A stretch of DNA of 46,223 nucleotides, from positions 1 to 46,223 of the IMG/VR virus record IMGVR_UViG_3300038312_000302. One strand, given 5' to 3'. Positions 1,362 to 45,840 of this stretch are shown here, piece by piece. The notes below the pieces were generated by a model that did no database searches, had not been told where the DNA came from, and was given only the letters and a program-made list of their open reading frames with translations. The position numbers were made by a program, and so were the translations under genes. How positions within the stretch are numbered: the first letter of the stretch is position 1; each line of letters opens with the position of its first letter. The stretch comes from a virus (taxonomy: Duplodnaviria; Caudoviricetes).

Positions 1362-1444
1362 TTTTTCGGCTTTAATCTTACAGATAGACCTAGCCTTATT
1401 TTTGCAGAATCGGGTGCAACTGTACTTTAGTGCGAAATAAAATA

Positions 1445-1475
1445 TGCAGTTATTGGGCTCAGACCAACAACTGCA
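1445..1475 (-). terminator. Intrinsic terminator between the convergent int and antirepressor genes
   Basis: Stem TGCAGTTATTGG / CCAACAACTGCA followed by a T-rich tract on the minus strand. Confidence 0.65.
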
Positions 1476-1510
1476 CTTAAAACTAATTTACTGATATTGT
1501 TCAATCAGTT

Positions 1511-2065
1511 TTACTCTGGACTAATCTCTGTTTTAAAGTCTAATCCCAACTGTCTATTATTGTTTTCCCAGTCTTCATATGTTAAACTTCTAGCCTCGGC
1601 AAGTTTCTTTTGAGCTTCCGTTAGTCTAGACTTAGCAGATGAAAACTCAGTCTTTACCATTTCTACATATTCCAGCTGTTGATCGAGTAGTGATTGTTTT
1701 TCACTCAAAAACTCTGCTTGTGACGAAAAATGTTTATACAATGCACGATAACACTCGATGCGATATTTACTCACCGCTTCACGAGCCTCTTCTTTCACGT
1801 TTTTTGGATTGATGGTAAAAAGCCATCCGAATACAAATTCAAGAGGCAAACATACCATTTCGTACTGTTTTCCATCGCTTCCAGTTGCCGTGCTGAGCAC
1901 GGTAACTGAATTCAAAAAAACGTCCTCTAGAAGCTTCCTTCTTTGAGCATCTTCATCAATTCCCAGAGCTAAACAAATTGGTTTAATTGGCACCAATTTT
2001 TCTTTGTTGTCTAATACTAATTGAATACTCACTTGATTAACTTTTGCTACTGTTTTTGTTTCCAT
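1511..2065 (-). CDS. Phage antirepressor (P22 Ant N-terminal-like domain) with coiled-coil C-terminus
   Basis: VPIKPICLALGID..QRRKL, GSDGKQYEMVCLPL..GWLFTINPKNVK..Y..ECY.AL pattern typical of P22AR N-terminal domains; ATG at 2065 preferred to TTG at 2071. Confidence 0.85.
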   Translation of the reverse strand: METKTVAKVNQVSIQLVLDNKEKLVPIKPICLALGIDEDAQRRKLLEDVFLNSVTVLSTATGSDGKQYEMVCLPLEFVFGWLFTINPKNVKEEAREAVSKYRIECYRALYKHFSSQAEFLSEKQSLLDQQLEYVEMVKTEFSSAKSRLTEAQKKLAEARSLTYEDWENNNRQLGLDFKTEISPE

Positions 2066-2095
2066 ATACAAATAATTTAAAGGATTAATATTTTA

Positions 2096-2239
2096 TCATT
2101 TTATATCTTCTTCCGACTTATTTGGTAGAAGTAAATTAATTAATACATATAGCTTATTATAAGCTAAATGGCGTTGGCGAGGATCGTTGCTTTCATAAAG
2201 CAACCTTAGCTGCTCAAGTGCATCTGTTTTGTACATCAT
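2096..2239 (-). CDS. Unannotated 47-aa peptide, paralog of 23660-23794
   Basis: Hand translation MMYKTDALEQLRLLYESNDPRQRHLAYNKLYVLINLLLPNKSEEDIK; fills the operon gap; 15/36 ungapped identity to the second peptide. Confidence 0.75.
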   Translation of the reverse strand: MMYKTDALEQLRLLYESNDPRQRHLAYNKLYVLINLLLPNKSEEDIK

Positions 2240-2251
2240 AGCAATTTGAGA

Positions 2252-2476
2252 TTACGGCCACAGTTTAATAACTTTTTTACCGGTGTCTAGAGCTCTTGGT
2301 TCTGGGTTTTTGAGAGACTGGATAGCTTTGTTCAGGATATCTATTGTTTTTAATGAAGACTCGTATGTTCTGAGTAAAGTATCTATTGAACTATGCATTG
2401 AGTTATATTTCTCTACAGATATAGTAATAGTACCAGTGCTTTGGCAAACAGGTTCGGTTAGTTTTATTGCGTTCAT
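2252..2476 (-). CDS. Hypothetical protein (74 aa), antirepressor operon
   Basis: Start MNAIKL overlaps the upstream stop as ATGA (2473-2476), i.e. translational coupling. Confidence 0.7.
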   Translation of the reverse strand: MNAIKLTEPVCQSTGTITISVEKYNSMHSSIDTLLRTYESSLKTIDILNKAIQSLKNPEPRALDTGKKVIKLWP

Positions 2477-2700
2477 AATAGACCTCCTTTCATTGCAGCA
2501 CCGTTTAACTCCTGAACATGAAATGTGGCGCATACGCCATTGCCTATGAGCACAAGTACCATTTCATTACCCATATAGTGCTTTTCGCACTGTACAGGTT
2601 GCCCTTCAAAAAGGGTGTCTATAGCACGGCTGAGTGTGTCTTTTACTACTGTTGTGGGATTTGTTGCTCTCTGTGGAGCAGGTAGAGATTTTGTTTTCAT
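2473..2700 (-). CDS. Hypothetical protein (75 aa), first gene behind RNA element 1
   Basis: ATG preceded by an A-rich leader; ends KGGLL with AAAGGAGG coupling to the next gene. Confidence 0.7.
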   Translation of the reverse strand: MKTKSLPAPQRATNPTTVVKDTLSRAIDTLFEGQPVQCEKHYMGNEMVLVLIGNGVCATFHVQELNGAAMKGGLL

Positions 2701-2747
2701 TTTTGTAAAGCTTTTAAAATGATTATAAATGTGCAGAAATAAAAAGA

Positions 2748-2821
2748 GGGTTCTGCTTTCCCGTTGCTTTACACCTCAAAGGCAGCGAAGGCATTAACCT
2801 TTCGCACGGGGGTCAGAACCC
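2748..2821 (-). ncRNA. Structured RNA element 1 (putative C4/CI-like antisense RNA)
   Basis: Outer stem GGGTTCTG/CAGAACCC, CCCGT/ACGGG, inner GCGAA/TTCGC around GGCATTAAC; homologous to 23839-23911 with compensatory changes. Confidence 0.7.
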
Positions 2822-2903
2822 AAATATTATATTTTATAGAGTCGGCAAAAAAAATGCCCGCATGTTGGCGAGCTTATCCCGCCTTTGAGTATGTAAAGCA
2901 TCA

Positions 2904-2934
2904 CAAAGGTGGATAATATATTTTAAACAGCAAA
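2904..2934 (-). promoter_or_regulatory. Bacteroidetes sigma-A-like promoter for element 1
   Basis: TTTG-N19-CACCTTTG on the minus strand (consensus TTTG-N19-21-TAnnTTTG, one mismatch). Confidence 0.55.
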
Positions 2935-2963: not shown

Positions 2964-3308
2964 TTACTTGATAGTTATTTCCGCTAAAAGATCTATAGAA
3001 GATACATATTCTACTTCTCTTCCGCTGTCTGTATAATTGGTATCCCATTCTGCAGAACAATCAAAAACTTCACACTCGTAGTCTATGCCTGAATCTATCA
3101 GCTTAGATACTTCTTCACTAAATTCTCTTTCTACATATCCTATAAATTGATCATCATAAAAGACCTTTACGGCAAAAGGATCATGTTTGTTTGATGGTTC
3201 TCTCTCGAGTTCTAATATGTCTCCGCTTTTTACATCTTCTGCAATCACTTTAATTATTTTCTTAGATAAGAACTTGGTTCCATTTACATTGAATAAGAGT
3301 GTTTCCAT
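2964..3308 (-). CDS. Stand-alone HIRAN domain protein
   Basis: GDILELEREPSNKHDPFAVKV...IGYV HIRAN signature; start probably METLLF. Confidence 0.85.
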   Translation of the reverse strand: METLLFNVNGTKFLSKKIIKVIAEDVKSGDILELEREPSNKHDPFAVKVFYDDQFIGYVEREFSEEVSKLIDSGIDYECEVFDCSAEWDTNYTDSGREVEYVSSIDLLAEITIK

Positions 3309-3368
3309 TGTTATTGTTTTAATAATACTGCCGAAAGTTAACAATTATTTCCCATTGAGAAAATTTTT

Positions 3369-21891: not shown

Positions 21892-23301
21892 TTATACTTT
21901 TTCGTTACCTATTTGTTTTTCTGCACCGGTGTTTTTGTCAAGAGTTGTCAGCATGATGTTTGGTATTATGAAATCGATATCTGCAGGCCAACCGTTAATT
22001 GCCTTGACTATTTTGAGAGGTTGGATGAGTAACTCTCTAACCGGTTTCATAAGACTCTGCTTGATGATGAAAAGCTCACGTGCTTCGGTACCGTTGATGT
22101 TTTTTGATTTGCCAGGACTGGCTCCCTGAAGGCTAGGATGAACTCCCATTGCGTAGCAAATAGCATTACTGGCCTCTTCGCTGTCTTCGATATATTCACC
22201 ACCTTTTATGAAGCTTTCAATTGGAGTTATTTTAATGTCTGACTTTTCGATGTTTTTTTCAAAGGATCCATAGTCGATTTCAGAAGCTAGGTTTTTACCC
22301 GCATTCTCTTTGCCCGATAAGAAATCTTCTAGTTGCTGGTAGAACTGCTTTTGACGTTCTGCCTGTTTTTTCTTGTCTGTTATACCCTCTTTTTTATACA
22401 GATCGTCAAAAAAACCTTTGCGGATCTGGATGTGGTATTTTATAACCATCTGATTACTTATCAGATTCATTTTGAACTCAGGGATGGCGCAACTCAGATC
22501 GTACCAATGACTTTCGAAGATTGACCACCAATATGCTTTTTGATAGTAGAATTTACCCGGAGATGGTTTTCCTATGTGCATGATGAAGCGACGATCATCA
22601 ACTTTTTTCTTTTTTCCATCTAAGCCTGGCTTAAAACCCATGCGTACTTTAAGGTCATGGAGCGGATTGTCATAGTCAAGCAGTGGAGTTAAAACAACAT
22701 CATCCTGTGTGTCTCCGGCCCATTTTGCACTATAGCAGTGGTACTCTATTTCTCCATTACTGTTCATTACTGAAAGTCGACTGAAAGCAGCTTCCTTAAA
22801 TCGCATTTGTACTATTTTAGTGCCGGGCTTGTTGAAGATGAATTCAACGAATGCATTATGAAGTAATGAAAGATCTGCTACCAACTCCTGTTGAATTAAT
22901 GGGTAGTTATTATCGTCAATGAAGTCGAAGATCTCTTTTATTTCTTTATTTGTATCTGACCGCTGAAGTGGTATGTTTGTAACCTTACCAGTTGAATCGT
23001 CAATACTTTGTCGCACGGGGATAGCCGTTTCTCCGTGTCCCATATTTCCGTTAAATTCAAGGTTTGATGCAACTATGTTATTCTTGAATGCATATTTGAT
23101 TAGCTTATCCGGTAAGTCATTATCAACTCCCCATGGGTATACAGGAATTTCCTTCGACTTTCCCTTAGGACTTACTGTCACCTTATTGTCATCTGTGGCG
23201 TCGGCTGTCAAACCAACCCCGGCTGCTTTATTTGATAAGAACTCGGTGACTATTGCCGGAGACTCTCCTTCTAAGATTGCGTAATTGTCAAATACTTTCA
23301 T
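21892..23301 (-). CDS. Portal protein
   Basis: 469 aa; PWGVDNDLP, FLSGKENAGK, ICYAMGVHPSLQG..PG patterns typical of Bacteroidetes phage portals. Confidence 0.8.
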   Translation of the reverse strand: MKVFDNYAILEGESPAIVTEFLSNKAAGVGLTADATDDNKVTVSPKGKSKEIPVYPWGVDNDLPDKLIKYAFKNNIVASNLEFNGNMGHGETAIPVRQSIDDSTGKVTNIPLQRSDTNKEIKEIFDFIDDNNYPLIQQELVADLSLLHNAFVEFIFNKPGTKIVQMRFKEAAFSRLSVMNSNGEIEYHCYSAKWAGDTQDDVVLTPLLDYDNPLHDLKVRMGFKPGLDGKKKKVDDRRFIMHIGKPSPGKFYYQKAYWWSIFESHWYDLSCAIPEFKMNLISNQMVIKYHIQIRKGFFDDLYKKEGITDKKKQAERQKQFYQQLEDFLSGKENAGKNLASEIDYGSFEKNIEKSDIKITPIESFIKGGEYIEDSEEASNAICYAMGVHPSLQGASPGKSKNINGTEARELFIIKQSLMKPVRELLIQPLKIVKAINGWPADIDFIIPNIMLTTLDKNTGAEKQIGNEKV

Positions 23302-23549
23302 AGATATACTCTTATATGGTTGAATTCAATTATTGTTATACGACGTATTTTTCGAGGGTAGTATTCACCTTCAGGCATTACATTAAGTGTATCTCCGGAT
23401 GAATGAAATGAAGTGAGTACGCAACTTATATATTCACGTATCTCGCCATTTTGTTTGACGAATTTAACCTGGAATGGAAGGCGTTTGCCATCCTTTCCAA
23501 TTCTCTCCATCATTTCCCAAATTCGGGATTGCTTAATTAATTTACTCAT
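23298..23549 (-). CDS. Hypothetical protein (83 aa) coupled to portal
   Basis: Start MSKLIK; the ORF-track TTG start lies inside the promoter motif. Confidence 0.7.
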   Translation of the reverse strand: MSKLIKQSRIWEMMERIGKDGKRLPFQVKFVKQNGEIREYISCVLTSFHSSGDTLNVMPEGEYYPRKIRRITIIEFNHIRVYL

Positions 23550-23602: not shown

Positions 23603-23630
23603 AAAAAAAAGCTGCCCATGAATGGACAGC
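23603..23630 (-). terminator. Intrinsic terminator closing the element-2 cassette
   Basis: Minus strand GCTGTCCATTCATGGGCAGC followed by T8. Confidence 0.75.
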
Positions 23631-23659
23631 CTATTTTTACAGTGTTTTGAGAAACATAG

Positions 23660-23794
23660 TCATGTTTCGGGTAGCAGAAGCGTTATCAACTCTCTTAATC
23701 GATCATAAGACTCAAGACGTTCTTTCTCATTCTTGCTTTTGAGAAGAGTGTCTAACCAGCCTAATGCTTTTGTTACTGTGATTGATTTACTCAT
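23660..23794 (-). CDS. Unannotated 44-aa peptide (48 aa from ATG 23806), paralog of 2096-2239
   Basis: MSKSITVTKALGWLDTLLKSKNEKERLESYDRLRELITLLLPET; only ORF between RNA element 2 and a terminator. Confidence 0.75.
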   Translation of the reverse strand: MSKSITVTKALGWLDTLLKSKNEKERLESYDRLRELITLLLPET

Positions 23795-23838
23795 TCTGTA
23801 ATGCATTTGAAATGAATATATAGGCAGGAAATAAATAA

Positions 23839-23911
23839 GGTCCTACCTCCCCGTTGCATTACACCTATCATAGGCAGTGGAGGCATTAACACACCACACG
23901 GGAGTAGGACC
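23839..23911 (-). ncRNA. Structured RNA element 2 (putative C4/CI-like antisense RNA)
   Basis: Outer stem GGTCCTAC/GTAGGACC, CCCGT/ACGGG, inner GTGG/CCAC around GGCATTAAC; homologous to 2748-2821. Confidence 0.7.
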
Positions 23912-23982
23912 AGTCTATTAAATGAGCTTAACGCTCTCCTTAATTACGGATCACTCGCCTATGAATAAGATGTAATGCACTG

Positions 23983-24013
23983 CAAAGATCGTAAATGTTT
24001 CGACAGACACAAA
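23983..24013 (-). promoter_or_regulatory. Sigma-A-like promoter for element 2
   Basis: TTTG-N19-GATCTTTG, same geometry as the element 1 promoter. Confidence 0.55.
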
Positions 24014-25171: not shown

Positions 25172-25417
25172 ATGACAAAGAAAATTAAAGTTTGCCGTAA
25201 ATGGTCGGGGAGTAAATCAGTGCCGAGCGTGAATCTTCAGGGTATTTATTTACAGGAGTATAATTTTAATATAGGTGATAGCGTGCGGGTAGAGTTTTAC
25301 CGGGACGAGATCCGGATAAAAAAAATGAATGCACGGCAGATCTTACGGCATATGGCCGAAGAAAACCCGGCAGTCTCAGAATTAGTTAGAGAGTTCAACT
25401 GCCAAATTTGCGATTAA
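25172..25417 (+). CDS. symE: SymE-family (AbrB-fold) toxin-like protein
   Basis: VPSVNLQGIYLQEYNFNIGDSVRV matches the SymE P.I.L.G.WL...GF..G..V.V pattern. Confidence 0.65.
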   Translation: MTKKIKVCRKWSGSKSVPSVNLQGIYLQEYNFNIGDSVRVEFYRDEIRIKKMNARQILRHMAEENPAVSELVREFNCQICD

Positions 25418-26418: not shown

Positions 26419-26688
26419 ATGAAAATAGCTATTAAACACAGTACTAAAGGGTTTTTGCTATACAATAAGGATTACCCTGGTGAATTATGGACGGTTGACC
26501 ATAGTAACAGATGGATTAGAATTTTCAGTAATGTTGAGCAGGCAGAACAGTGTGCAAAAACATTGAGAAACTTAGACGGTGAGCTATTGAAAAAGGTTGA
26601 TATTATTGAAATGCTCCCAACATCTGAACCATTTCACTTTGAATCATACAATGTTGTAAAAACAATAATAAATGAAGTTGAAGAATGA
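26419..26688 (+). CDS. Hypothetical protein
   Basis: 89 aa; overlaps the helicase start. Confidence 0.65.
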   Translation: MKIAIKHSTKGFLLYNKDYPGELWTVDHSNRWIRIFSNVEQAEQCAKTLRNLDGELLKKVDIIEMLPTSEPFHFESYNVVKTIINEVEE

Positions 26689-27886
26689 TCAGAAAGCAGC
26701 CAAATCCCATCTGTCCGACTGGCGGGTGGGAGCGTTGTTTATGGAAGCAGGTACCGGTAAAACAAGAGTAGCTGTTGAGATTGCAAATGAAACAACTGCT
26801 GATCTGGTTGTATGGATTGGGCCACTGAGAACGATCAAGCCTAAGGAAGGCATTTCATCCATCATTGATGAAATAAACAGGTGGGGTGGCTTTAAGGCTC
26901 CAGTGATTTTCTTCGGAGTTGAATCTATCTCGCAATCTGACAGAATATTCCTTGAATTGAGAAATACAATAGAGAAAGCCAATAATCCGTTTATCATAGT
27001 GGATGAAAGCCTTAAGATTAAGAACAGCCAGGCAAAACGTACAAAAAGACTTATGGAGTTGAGCCATTTAGCTAAATATAAATTAATTCTAAATGGAACA
27101 CCTATAAGCAAAAATCTTATGGACTTGAAGCCTCAAATGGATTTTTTATCACATAAAATACTCTCGATGAGTGATGCGGAGTATAAGAGCACATTCTGCG
27201 AATATACAAAAGTCACAAAGTATTTTGGCGGTAGAAGAGGCTATACAAAGGAGTTTATAACCGGATATGAAAATATTGATTACCTGTATTCGCTTATAAG
27301 ACATTACGTGTATGAATGTGATCTAAAGCTGAATGTGAGCCAGCAATACAGTGTGTTAAATTATGAGCTGTCGGAGAAAGACAGAGAGGATTACAACTTT
27401 TTGAAAACTAAATATCTTGATAATGAGATGCTGATGTGGAAAAATAATAATATTTTTCTCGAAATGACTCAAAAAATGCAACACGCATATTGTTGTAGTG
27501 AAAGTAAGTTTGAGGCAGTTCAAGATTTGTTTGAAAAAACAGATCCTGAGAAAACGATAATTTACTGCAAGTATATAAATAGCCGGAAAGAATGTGAGAA
27601 AAGATTTCCTAAAGCGACTGTTTTAAGTTATCAAAAAGAATCGTTTGGACTGAATTTACAGCATTTATCTAACACTATATATTTTGATAAGAACTGGGAT
27701 TATGCTTTGAGGATCCATTCGACCAGGAGAACATTCAGGACCGGGCAGGAGTATGATTGTCATTATTGGGATTTGACCGGTGATGTAGGTTTAGAAATAA
27801 TGATAGACAACAACATCGAAAAGAAGATAGATATGGCGGAGTATTTTAAAGGAAAAACTAAAGAAGAATTACGTGAAGTATTATAA
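26672..27886 (+). CDS. Compact SNF2-like superfamily-2 helicase/ATPase
   Basis: Walker A FMEAGTGKT, motif II IIVDESLKIKN, motif III LNGTP, FGLNLQ, motif VI-like RRTFRTGQ. Confidence 0.85.
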   Translation: MKLKNDQKAAKSHLSDWRVGALFMEAGTGKTRVAVEIANETTADLVVWIGPLRTIKPKEGISSIIDEINRWGGFKAPVIFFGVESISQSDRIFLELRNTIEKANNPFIIVDESLKIKNSQAKRTKRLMELSHLAKYKLILNGTPISKNLMDLKPQMDFLSHKILSMSDAEYKSTFCEYTKVTKYFGGRRGYTKEFITGYENIDYLYSLIRHYVYECDLKLNVSQQYSVLNYELSEKDREDYNFLKTKYLDNEMLMWKNNNIFLEMTQKMQHAYCCSESKFEAVQDLFEKTDPEKTIIYCKYINSRKECEKRFPKATVLSYQKESFGLNLQHLSNTIYFDKNWDYALRIHSTRRTFRTGQEYDCHYWDLTGDVGLEIMIDNNIEKKIDMAEYFKGKTKEELREVL

Positions 27887-29084
27887 TAAAAATAAAAACG
27901 TTTACGAAGCAGCAGTTGAGCGATTTGAGATCATATTCAAAGAGTTTGATCGTGTTTGTATTTCGTTCTCAAATGGGAAAGACAGCGGAGTGCTACTAAA
28001 CTTAGCTATTGAAGTAGCCAAGAAGCTGAATAAGCTGCCTGTACATGCAATGTACATTGATATGGAAGCTCAGTATCAGCATTCTATTGATTATACAGTT
28101 AAAATGTTTGACAGGTCTGAGGTAAAGGCTTATTGGATATGCTTACCTATTCATCTGAGAAATGCAGTATCTCAATTTCAAAATCATTGGTTATGTTGGG
28201 ATCCTGATAAAAAAGATGCATGGGTGAGAGATCTGCCGAAGCATCAATCTGTAATATCAGATGAAAGCTACTTCTCTTTTTTTAGACGTGGAATGGAGTT
28301 TGAAGAGTTTACTCCAGAGTTTGCTAAATGGTTTTCACAGGGTGAGAAAACAGCATCTGTGATAGGAATACGAAGCGATGAAAGTTTGAACCGTTATAGA
28401 ACGATAAAGAGTGATAGCAAAATAACCTACAATAATTATCAGTGGACTACGAAGCTTTTTAGAGAAGATCCGGAGCAAGAAATATATAATGCTTATCCTA
28501 TTTATGATTGGCATGTGGAAGATATTTGGACGGCAAATGCTAAATTTGATTGGGAATATAACAAGATTTACGATCTTATGTACATGGCTGGTGTATCATT
28601 GCATAAGCAACGCCTGTGTCAGCCATACGGTGATGACCAGAGGCAAGGCTTGTATTTATTTAAAGCCTTGGAACCTGAAACTTGGGCAAAGATTGTGAAC
28701 AGAGTTGAAGGTGCTAATTTCGGCAACCGTTATACTGAAACTGATAAAACGACCTTGGGTAACTACAAGGTTAATTTACCTCCGGGGCATACATATGAAT
28801 CTTATGCAAAGTTTCTTTTAGACACTATGCCTCCATATTTAGCTGAACACTATCAAACTAAAATAGACACTTTTTTAAAATGGTGGGAGAAAGAGGAAAT
28901 TAAAATAATTCCTGATACAGCAGATCCGAAAATGGAAGCTGCTAGAAAAGCACCTAGCTGGAGACGTATATGTAAAGTATTACTTAAAAATGATTATTGG
29001 TGTAAAGGTTTATCTTTCTCACAAACTAAGCGAGAACTCGAAAAGCAAATGGAAATAATAACAAAATACTCAGATATATTATGA
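27873..29084 (+). CDS. ibrA: IbrA-like PAPS-reductase-family (PP-loop) protein with DUF3440-like C-terminus
   Basis: SFSNGKDS PP-loop, IGIRSDESLNR, YPIYDW..EDIW, QRLCQPYG, SWRRICK.LLKNDYWC. Confidence 0.88.
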   Translation: MKYYNKNKNVYEAAVERFEIIFKEFDRVCISFSNGKDSGVLLNLAIEVAKKLNKLPVHAMYIDMEAQYQHSIDYTVKMFDRSEVKAYWICLPIHLRNAVSQFQNHWLCWDPDKKDAWVRDLPKHQSVISDESYFSFFRRGMEFEEFTPEFAKWFSQGEKTASVIGIRSDESLNRYRTIKSDSKITYNNYQWTTKLFREDPEQEIYNAYPIYDWHVEDIWTANAKFDWEYNKIYDLMYMAGVSLHKQRLCQPYGDDQRQGLYLFKALEPETWAKIVNRVEGANFGNRYTETDKTTLGNYKVNLPPGHTYESYAKFLLDTMPPYLAEHYQTKIDTFLKWWEKEEIKIIPDTADPKMEAARKAPSWRRICKVLLKNDYWCKGLSFSQTKRELEKQMEIITKYSDIL

Positions 29085-29674
29085 AGATAGATTTACCAGA
29101 AAATATAACTATAGATGAAAAGGTTTCATTATTTAATGATTTAACACAGCAACTGTATGATTGGATTGGATTAAAACATCCATCTCTTAATGTGCAGTTA
29201 ATTAAGGCAGAACAAATTCAGGGCAACGATTATAACCCTAATAAGGTTGCGCCACCCGAAATGAAATTATTGAAGCTATCAATAAAAAAAGATGGAGTGA
29301 CTATGCCAGTTGTAGTTGCGAATCAAGACAAAAAGAGGATGCCGTATGTTGTTGTTGATGGTTTTCATAGAACAACAGTAATTAGCCAGGATAAAGAGAT
29401 TAATGAAAGCCTTGCCGGCTATGTGCCTACATCTAGGCTAAACAAATCAATTGAAGATAGAATAACGGCTACTGTGAGGCATAACATGGCCAGAGGCACA
29501 CATCAGGTTGAATTATCGGCAAAGTTGGTTGCAATGCTTAAGAAGCATAATTGGACAAACGCTCGCATTGGAATGGAGCTTGGAATGGATGCGGACGAAG
29601 TATTGAGACTCAAACAAATAACAGGATTAGCAGAATTATTTAAAGACAAAGAATTTAGTAACTCATGGAAATGA
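29081..29674 (+). CDS. ibrB: IbrB-like ParB/Srx-domain protein
   Basis: NDYNPNKVAPPEMKLLKLSI..DG.TMP, VVDGFHR, ATVRHNMARG.H, LGMDADEVLRLKQITGL. Confidence 0.9.
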   Translation: MKIDLPENITIDEKVSLFNDLTQQLYDWIGLKHPSLNVQLIKAEQIQGNDYNPNKVAPPEMKLLKLSIKKDGVTMPVVVANQDKKRMPYVVVDGFHRTTVISQDKEINESLAGYVPTSRLNKSIEDRITATVRHNMARGTHQVELSAKLVAMLKKHNWTNARIGMELGMDADEVLRLKQITGLAELFKDKEFSNSWK

Positions 29675-44658: not shown

Positions 44659-45031
44659 TTAAATCTTCGCGATGTCTGTGAGAACGTGATCGAGTAACAA
44701 CTCTTTCTGTTCTTGCACGAGTTCGCAAGCGAGGTTGAGTAATTTGTGAGGTTTCCTTTATTTCTCCATAGGAGAAGATTATCAAGAGTGCTATACTTAC
44801 AATTTTAGTTACCAGGGGTGAGAGACTGAAACTAATATTGAAGTGAGTGCAAAACCACCAGGCAGAAAGCTCATTAATTTTAGAGCAGCCTGTTTTCTCG
44901 TATATATTTCTGACATGCTTATCAACAGTGTGTTCGGAAATAAAGAGAAGGCGGGCTACATCTTTTTTTGCTGCCCCCCAGGCTATCATTTCTGATATTC
45001 GCTCTTCCTGTCTTGTTAAGAATGCTGTCAT
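44651..45031 (-). CDS. LuxR-type HTH protein with C-terminal hydrophobic segment
   Basis: LTRQE..I....AWG...KDVARLLFISEHTVDKHVRNIYEK; ATGA-coupled to the cro-like gene. Confidence 0.85.
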   Translation of the reverse strand: MTAFLTRQEERISEMIAWGAAKKDVARLLFISEHTVDKHVRNIYEKTGCSKINELSAWWFCTHFNISFSLSPLVTKIVSIALLIIFSYGEIKETSQITQPRLRTRARTERVVTRSRSHRHREDLIA

Positions 45032-45246
45032 GATCCCCAAATTTCATAAATGCCATATTCGTGAAAAATAGCCTCTATGGCTTCCGCTTCTGATACCTTT
45101 GGCTCAACGGTGCCATCGATACGTAATTTCCATGATGCACGTGAACTTGGTTTTAAATTAAGGGCTTCTGTAATTTTTCGTCGAACTTCAGCCGCATCCT
45201 TTTGCTGAACTTGCGAGAAACCTTTTTTAAAAGAATATTTATCCAT
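45028..45246 (-). CDS. Cro-like early regulator
   Basis: 72 aa, first gene of the operon divergent from the repressor; EPKVSEAEAIE motif. Confidence 0.65.
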   Translation of the reverse strand: MDKYSFKKGFSQVQQKDAAEVRRKITEALNLKPSSRASWKLRIDGTVEPKVSEAEAIEAIFHEYGIYEIWGS

Positions 45247-45399: not shown

Positions 45400-45840
45400 A
45401 TGGACTATAATACTCTATTATCCAAGCGTTTAAAAATTATTCTTAATGAACAATTTGGAGGAAATTATTCTGCTATGAGCAGATTAATGGGAGTTACAGA
45501 TGGCGCGTTAGGTAGCTATATAAGAGGAAAGAAGCAAAAAGATGGTAGTATTAGAATATCAACACCTTCGGCAGAAGTTATTGCAAATATTATCAATAAT
45601 CTGGGAATAAATTCCGAATGGCTATTGTTTGGGACGGGTGATATGAAGGTTAAACAAACTACAAATGTGGTAAGCGAGCCTGAACAGGAATATATTTTAT
45701 CTGAAAATAGATTGCTTGCGATAATAGAATCACAACAGAGAGTTATTGAATCGCAAAGTAAAAGTATAGAGAATTTGTCGGATGGGGGCAACGGTACTGC
45801 GGAAGGTGCAAACACTGCGCGTGTAAGAAAGGGAAGTTGA
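45400..45840 (+). CDS. CI-like HTH repressor lacking an S24 peptidase domain
   Basis: YSAMSRLMGVTDGALGSYIRG HTH, INSEWLLFGTGDM, C-terminal coiled coil. Confidence 0.8.
   Translation: MDYNTLLSKRLKIILNEQFGGNYSAMSRLMGVTDGALGSYIRGKKQKDGSIRISTPSAEVIANIINNLGINSEWLLFGTGDMKVKQTTNVVSEPEQEYILSENRLLAIIESQQRVIESQSKSIENLSDGGNGTAEGANTARVRKGS

Follow-up and report, generated by a model that had tools for sequence, protein, structure and literature searches.

Two short open reading frames in the 46,223-base virus record analysed here, hereafter the window, belong to an unnamed, conserved family of small phage proteins. Members of this family are nearly always found with a cloverleaf leader RNA, whereas the RNA is often found with other cargo, the peptide being one frequent passenger of the leader.

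Temperate phages of Bacteroidales are abundant, and to our knowledge the control of their lysis and lysogeny has barely been described. The window is prophage-like: its integrase adjoins a tRNA end, and it encodes a primase as well as head and terminase-like proteins. Its host group would be Bacteroidales, since it carries promoter elements of the -7 type, its RNA has a match in Bacteroides phage BS-TP3 and a related phage record is of human faecal origin; the -7 consensus in Bacteroidota is TAnnTTTG (PMC7366714). A 146-aa CI-like HTH protein (45400..45840, plus strand), with a weak HTH_3 match (E 0.032) and no detected peptidase domain, is the candidate repressor and a possible target of the peptides, and a 72-aa ORF (45028-45246) is divergent from it. 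Elsewhere on the plus strand, SNF2-type helicase, PAPS-reductase/DUF3440 and ParB-like genes stand in a row (26672-29674), opposed to the structural genes, in what resembles a DNA-modification or defence cassette, and an 81-aa ORF (25172-25417) gives a weak SymE-toxin match (E 0.033), with similar ORFs in L030 and L034.

Both peptide frames are complete and lie on the minus strand. Peptide A (2096-2239, 47 aa) is the third ORF of leader operon A, and peptide B (23660-23794, 44 aa) is the only ORF of leader operon B, where an in-frame ATG at 23806 would lengthen it to 48 aa. In ungapped local alignment, they share 15 identities over 35 columns (15/36 with one extra column counted in the first-pass annotation), with a BLOSUM62 score of 58 that none of 10,000 shuffles reached (shuffle mean 20.9, sd 4.0). 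Moreover, among the 994 six-frame segments of the window, A and B are mutual best non-self matches, the next best scoring 41 and 38. The first-pass annotation had claimed two paralogous short ORFs at these positions, and the pair is borne out.

The breadth of the family emerged from profiles. Apart from the window's own clusters, single-sequence searches returned just two sequences, both closely related to B. A four-row profile run index-free against 1.84 billion protein representatives gave 13 matches, 10 of them short members, including peptide A and a query row, and of 839 candidates for a 12-row profile, 26 clusters passed E<=0.01, the window itself accounting for two. Peptides A and B score E 1.7e-18 and 1.2e-20 against the family profile, in which each is itself included. 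Members are mostly 39-47 aa long, have a matching Met start and end soon after LLP (LLP[ED]). A distant clade is present in MT835542.1 (E 1.7e-6), and a search with an alignment led by that record retrieved 30 viral loci, among which 8 different peptide sequences occur, one being a locus already in our sample, which consists of the loci found by alignment-based scans. Neither A1 nor A6 gave a match as a query in viral scans, the diversity of A2 was too great for it to be used in searching, GenBank phages gave no match to P0025 or to leader B, and plasmids gave none to leader A. Among GTDB genomes, the core-alignment search gave no locus, and the conserved 83-aa gene that precedes the portal-like gene (23298..23549, minus strand), used as an anchor for finding related phages, led to one short contig (L022), beginning inside peptide B. 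That genome contig (2223 nt) has 99% identity to the window's 83-aa gene, and it is probably a contaminant of its bin, which is labelled Pseudomonadales. Three long proteins (P0013-P0015) were removed from the family, and five locus matches (L013, L014, L019, L020 and L021) were discarded because they are short, fortuitous matches within frames that are unrelated.

None of these sequences could be linked to a named family. Among the clusters listed, no name goes beyond "hypothetical protein"; Pfam, PHROG and NCBIfam gave no match below E 0.01 for 26 members, PADLOC defence profiles matched 0 of 30 members at E<=0.1, the PDB searched by sequence gave nothing below E 0.01, and Foldseek gave no match at E<=0.001 on PDB and BFVD. 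Repeated RNA-polymerase chains among the Foldseek rows (E 3.8-6) were taken as chance, the query being only two helices. In the ESM Atlas, the top rows for peptide A are unnamed clusters (0.92-0.93), followed by DUF4351 and PDDEXK_2 rows at 0.91 that have only 72 and 60 of 256 features in common with it, and P0025 has nothing above 0.80. A possible likeness to lambda CIII was dropped, as no member matched such a family in the Pfam search. In the open literature accessible to search, nothing on Bacteroides or Bacteroidales prophages, whether concerned with c4-like RNAs, antirepressors or small proteins, describes the peptide family or the RNA, either of which the motif tables of PMC2864571, the sRNA lists of PMC7366714 or small-protein catalogues could hold under a number. 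The UG27 RNAs of bioRxiv 10.64898/2026.09.22.753630 are unrelated to the leader RNA.

The peptide frame is under selection as a protein. Ten coding sequences (one identical pair omitted) gave pN/pS below 1 in all 44 informative pairs, with a median of 0.44, values to be read in the light of homologues that were found and aligned by protein similarity and of synonymous sites near saturation. The closest pair has pS 0.46 and pN 0.11, identity by codon position is 0.53/0.70/0.35, and there are no in-frame stops. Homologues with a conserved reading frame do exist, therefore, and their ratio lies below one, where the first-pass annotation had named a lack of such homologues, or a dN/dS near 1, as the outcome that would count against its proposal.

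AlphaFold2, run on 26 rows, places helices at residues 4-16 and 20-37 (mean pLDDT 82, pTM 0.58), a predicted two-helix hairpin that agrees with the helical hairpin suggested beforehand. The pattern L, L, R, Y, R, L, E, L, LLP is kept in 28-30 of 30 rows, and the conserved columns are mostly hydrophobic, together with R, Y, R and E on helix 2 and the closing proline.

In the leaders, those of the window being on the minus strand, a promoter-like TTTG is directly followed by an 8-letter box; the 3' arm of a cloverleaf contains the complement of this box, and the box comes again at the first start codon. In leader A, the promoter-like -7 element (2904-2911), an imperfect copy of TAnnTTTG, is followed by the 5' target box (2892-2899; with the element, 2892..2911), the cloverleaf core (2737..2828), a candidate c4-like antisense RNA whose antisense box is at 2766-2773, and the second target box (2704..2711), just ahead of the first-ORF ATG. 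In leader B, the corresponding elements are the -7 element (23983-23990), the 5' target box (23971-23978; with the element, 23971..23990), the core (23827..23919, antisense box 23856-23863) and the second target box (23797..23804), in the translation-start region of peptide B. Both -7 elements are putative promoters. The cloverleaf is about 80 nt long in each window copy; core A is recognised by covariance model R1 and has a fold z of -3.6, and core B is recognised by the covariance model and has a fold z of -2.7. In 14 aligned copies, 14 of the 25 predicted pairs show changes on both sides. Furthermore, the complements at the 5' and start-codon sites are exact over 8-9 nt in both window copies, and the box letters differ between loci, yet change together at all three sites. 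As to duplex energy, RNA B favours its own start region (-11.7 vs -6.8 kcal/mol for that of the other copy), RNA A has -10.6 for its own vs -11.9 kcal/mol for the other, and each favours its own 5' site. Rfam held no match to the RNA at E<=1 except the tRNA end, and the c4 antisense family RF01695 was not matched.

The RNA is widespread: besides both window copies, it was seen in L002-L012, L015-L018, L024-L030, L058, L059 and L061-L091, and model R1 fails to detect one diverged subtype or more, represented by L032, L074 and the second copy in MT835542.1. Between the 5' box and the cloverleaf lies a GC-rich hairpin with a T run (2856-2873 in the window, minus strand), and most leaders have its counterpart; the hairpin is scored as a terminator, and attenuation governed by pairing of the 5' box could be its role. 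Some operons carry tandem leader RNAs about 350 nt apart with different boxes (L062, L063, L065, L067 and L069, at 1443-1533 and 1789-1882; L008, at 1472-1563 and 1846-1938), which looks like stacking or replacement of specificity.

Among six sequencing runs, all as contigs, one 328-nt contig of run X1 spans 23646-23973, that is, leader B and peptide B, and ends close to the predicted start and terminator of operon B; it was not counted as transcript evidence, because DNA may be present in the library and adjacent pieces have coverage too. The same runs have no contig over peptide A.

The general layout runs from the promoter-like element and 5' box through the cloverleaf and the second box at the first start codon to 0-3 small ORFs, the peptide, and a terminator-like hairpin or an antirepressor. 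The peptide is the only ORF in window operon B and L018, the second in L015, L017 and L024, and the third in window operon A, L016, L029, L030 and L032, and its start often overlaps the stop of the previous ORF. In operon A, the first ORF (2473..2700, 75 aa) has no Pfam or PHROG match, similar first ORFs being recognised by eye in L007, L016 and L027, and the second (2252..2533, up to 93 aa) has weak matches only (E>=0.015). Peptide A comes after these two, about 500 nt behind its RNA, and 24 nt further on begins the last gene (1511..2071), of the P22_AR_N antirepressor family (PF10547, E 3.8e-29; phrog_524 anti-repressor Ant, E 1.7e-34); a terminator-like hairpin from a consensus scan (1444..1476) closes the operon. 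All of these are on the minus strand, as is a HIRAN-domain gene (2964-3344, E 4e-14) just upstream of leader A. In operon B, a scan places a terminator-like hairpin with a T run (23609..23632, minus strand) 28 nt past the peptide. The earlier description of each peptide as lying downstream of a copy of the RNA element therefore holds for both, but immediate succession is found only for B.

Among ten loci read by eye, a hairpin with a following or flanking T run lies within about 60 nt behind the peptide in nine, whereas in window A and L032 the P22_AR_N gene stands behind the peptide in place of the hairpin. The 83-aa and portal genes frequently follow close behind the peptide, and the minimal version of the system comprises one RNA, one 44-aa gene and one terminator in about 380 nt. 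A HicA-type gene (E 4e-11) with a HicB-like neighbour recognised by eye directly follows the peptide's terminator in L029 (9243-9883) and L030 (432-827), and we read the spot before the head genes as one that takes up toxin-antitoxin cargo. In the gut-phage clade (L074-L091, L060-L073), a further conserved short ORF, of about 34-53 aa, with the pattern AVW..SVRY.FN lies about 100 nt upstream, before or overlapping the peptide start.

The association of peptide and RNA is asymmetric. Under a strict three-box test that uses no model, 30 of 42 peptide loci scored positive vs 2 of 208 control segments, the 42 loci being redundant (10 with one common peptide) and omitting the duplicates L001, L006, L023, L025, L026 and L090 and the truncated L022. 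Among the 12 misses, L015, L024 and L028 have all three boxes on tabulation, L074 and L076-L079 have boxes with a wobble pair, and the second MT835542.1 copy has them by eye, the leader being present in 39 of the 42 overall. The other three (L081, L083 and L085) have no such leader within 1.3 kb upstream of the peptide. There, the peptide follows a broken upstream ORF and another leader operon begins 500-700 nt downstream, an arrangement that reads as a rearranged or decayed module.

In the opposite direction, only 1 of 11 loci found by the RNA pattern alone carries the peptide, and that one is essentially the window's phage. For 21 tabulated RNA copies, the peptide lies within 1.5 kb in 10, at the other contig end in one (L030, whose contig ends overlap) and is absent in 10. 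Other cargo of the RNA includes KilA-N or P22_AR_N antirepressors, other small ORFs and, by eye, a probable HNH-type nuclease (L002, L004). Whole-record searches found a peptide match in 7 of 15 related phage records, one copy each, and the peptide is missing from the complete relatives G005 and G006. Two copies in one phage occur in three records, namely the window, MT835542.1 and one IMG/VR record (L084, L088). Record G001, which may be a fragment, has locus B in common with the window and a CI-like protein identical to the window's, whereas nothing in it matched locus A, which is therefore probably an accessory module. The first-pass annotation had regarded the peptide as the conserved cargo of the switch, which these counts do not support; the co-occurrence with the RNA motif that it proposed to look for holds from peptide to RNA (39 of 42) and breaks down from RNA to peptide (absent from 10 of 21 copies).

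As to function, our tentative preference, held at somewhat below even chances, is that the peptide would be an Icd-like early effector, briefly made, and would retard growth or division by binding a host protein. We favour this role because the peptide is below the size of an enzyme, one of its surfaces is conserved, and it may either be an operon's sole cargo or adjoin a standard antirepressor; its co-occurrence with the latter (window A, L032) suggests a different job for the peptide. In those two operons it precedes the antirepressor gene, as icd precedes ant in P1. By the precedent of P1 c4, the cloverleaf would be cut out of the transcript and accumulate in the lysogen, where the freed RNA would pair with the second box and block translation of the first ORF, the block passing to the genes behind through start/stop overlaps. 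Synthesis of the peptide would thereby be confined to a brief pulse following infection, or to occasions of RNA failure or de-repression. The most conjectural step is that the conserved helix-2 residues (R, Y, R, E and the LLP end) may contact a conserved host partner. Searches of Pfam, PHROG, NCBIfam, PADLOC, PDB and, with Foldseek, PDB and BFVD gave no sequence or fold link to Icd, Kil or known effectors. Against the Icd-like role, moreover, the peptide is usually last in its operon, while Icd is first, and it is dispensable, as the 7 of 15 related records with a match and the 10 of 21 RNA copies without it attest. The fuller proposal, by which a c4-like Bacteroidales switch with a swappable 8-letter code would trigger burst synthesis of a new 40-residue peptide that inhibits a conserved host protein, the minimal form upstream of the head genes acting as a one-gene immunity or takeover module, must be considered doubtful.

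A target within the phage itself is conceivable though unlikely: acting as a small antirepressor, or as a modulator of the repressor, the peptide could bind the CI-like protein and shift the decision towards lysis. An antirepressor is encoded in the P1 operon under c4 control (PMC8198154), the CI-like protein, with no detected peptidase domain, may need an antagonist for induction, and the peptide is the sole cargo in window B and L018, while other leader copies bear KilA-N or P22_AR_N antirepressor-family genes. Nevertheless, a standard antirepressor adjoins the peptide in window A and L032, and two divergent peptides would face a single candidate repressor in the window. The candidate repressors of related records have 20-62% identity to that of the window, a range like that of the peptides, which therefore does not discriminate for this role; the predicted complex of peptide B with a CI-like protein dimer scored 0.00 and was counted neither for nor against.

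That the peptide might instead be an anti-defence protein of the first minutes of infection, blocking a host immune system, we regard as quite unlikely. Its small size, helical nature and accessory status, its occasional duplication (three phage records with two copies) and its place in a variable cargo operon that would be transiently expressed are in keeping with such a role. It has, however, no match to a named family, and one surface conserved across diverged clades would fit a stable partner better than a fast-changing defence target.

It is also improbable that the ORF acts mainly in cis, its translation being coupled to the next gene or to terminator control and gating read-through to the antirepressor or head genes, so that the protein itself would matter little. 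Start codons do overlap upstream stops in several loci, and in 9 of 10 loci no more than about 60 nt separate the end of the peptide from a terminator-like hairpin, often just before the 83-aa and portal genes. The residue pattern is conserved against a background of scrambled third codon positions, however, and an exclusively cis role has no need of this.

The proximity of head genes could likewise indicate a structural or assembly cofactor, for instance a small homo-oligomer for head assembly or a partner of a neighbouring leader-operon protein, and a leucine-rich hairpin of 40 residues would likely oligomerise; the weak resemblance to HEAT repeats, seen in 4 of 26 members (best E 0.015), points the same way. 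We give this little credence, since a terminator-like hairpin separates the peptide from the head genes, the peptide also lies far from them in window A, L032 and the gut-phage loci, and it is missing from the complete relatives G005 and G006 and has no fixed neighbour. Finally, untranslated chance frames carried along with the RNA are scarcely credible in view of an A-B alignment that beats 10,000 shuffles, a 26-cluster family, conserved start and end, and pN/pS below 1.

Altogether, a conserved, unannotated small protein, overlooked through length cut-offs, is tied to a structured RNA absent from Rfam, and the pairing is present in environmental and human-gut phage clades. The minimal version of about 380 nt makes the system directly testable. 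The host target, if found, would give a new handle on Bacteroidales physiology and, if the preferred reading is true, a burst-released host inhibitor would be a new tool against gut Bacteroidales. The switch logic is already known from P1; the peptide family and the Bacteroidales leader variant are the new part.

Of the known systems, the HEAT-repeat unit (PF02985, PF13646) resembles the peptide in its two antiparallel helices and a similar L..L..S....R..A...L..L spacing, and the profile search also brought up three proteins of greater length (E 5e-5 to 5e-4), in two of which a repeat-like pattern can be seen by eye. Unlike a HEAT repeat, the peptide is a single stand-alone unit with no tandem copies, and 3-4 of 26 members match, with a best E of 0.015; the likeness is likely a convergence of amphipathic helices.

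Closer in layout are the CI RNA of satellite phage P4, with kil/icd, and the ca RNA of N15, with icd-antA, both with three sites and small growth-inhibiting ORFs behind. The leaders described here have the same 5' site, antisense site and downstream site with small ORFs following, and differ in that the peptide has no sequence match to known systems.

The nearest comparison is with the immI module of P1 and P7. In P1, c4 RNA represses the icd-ant operon, and Icd blocks cell division (PMC8198154); c4 RNA pairs near the ribosome binding site, and c4 heteroimmunity is described (PMC12197685). The c4 antisense RNA, RF01695, is listed for Proteobacteria and phages in PMC2864571 (accession in its Table 1). 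As in immI, a structured RNA lies in the leader of a small-ORF operon with a loop complementary to the start region of the first gene, the antisense segment is complementary to upstream and downstream target boxes in both window copies, the specificity letters vary between copies, and an antirepressor gene ends the operon, although at locus A only, locus B being without one. Unlike immI, the leader RNA has no Rfam match, the promoter element is of the Bacteroidota type and the cargo is variable; the peptide is 40 aa long, usually the last gene, and without Pfam or PHROG similarity, and an Icd-family first gene was not found with Pfam or PHROG among 26 members and the first ORF of operon A. The leader operon thus resembles P1 immI in layout but fails membership in that module at the level of sequence, and on these grounds it can be described as a putative Bacteroidales variant of a known switch, equipped with an unnamed peptide family.
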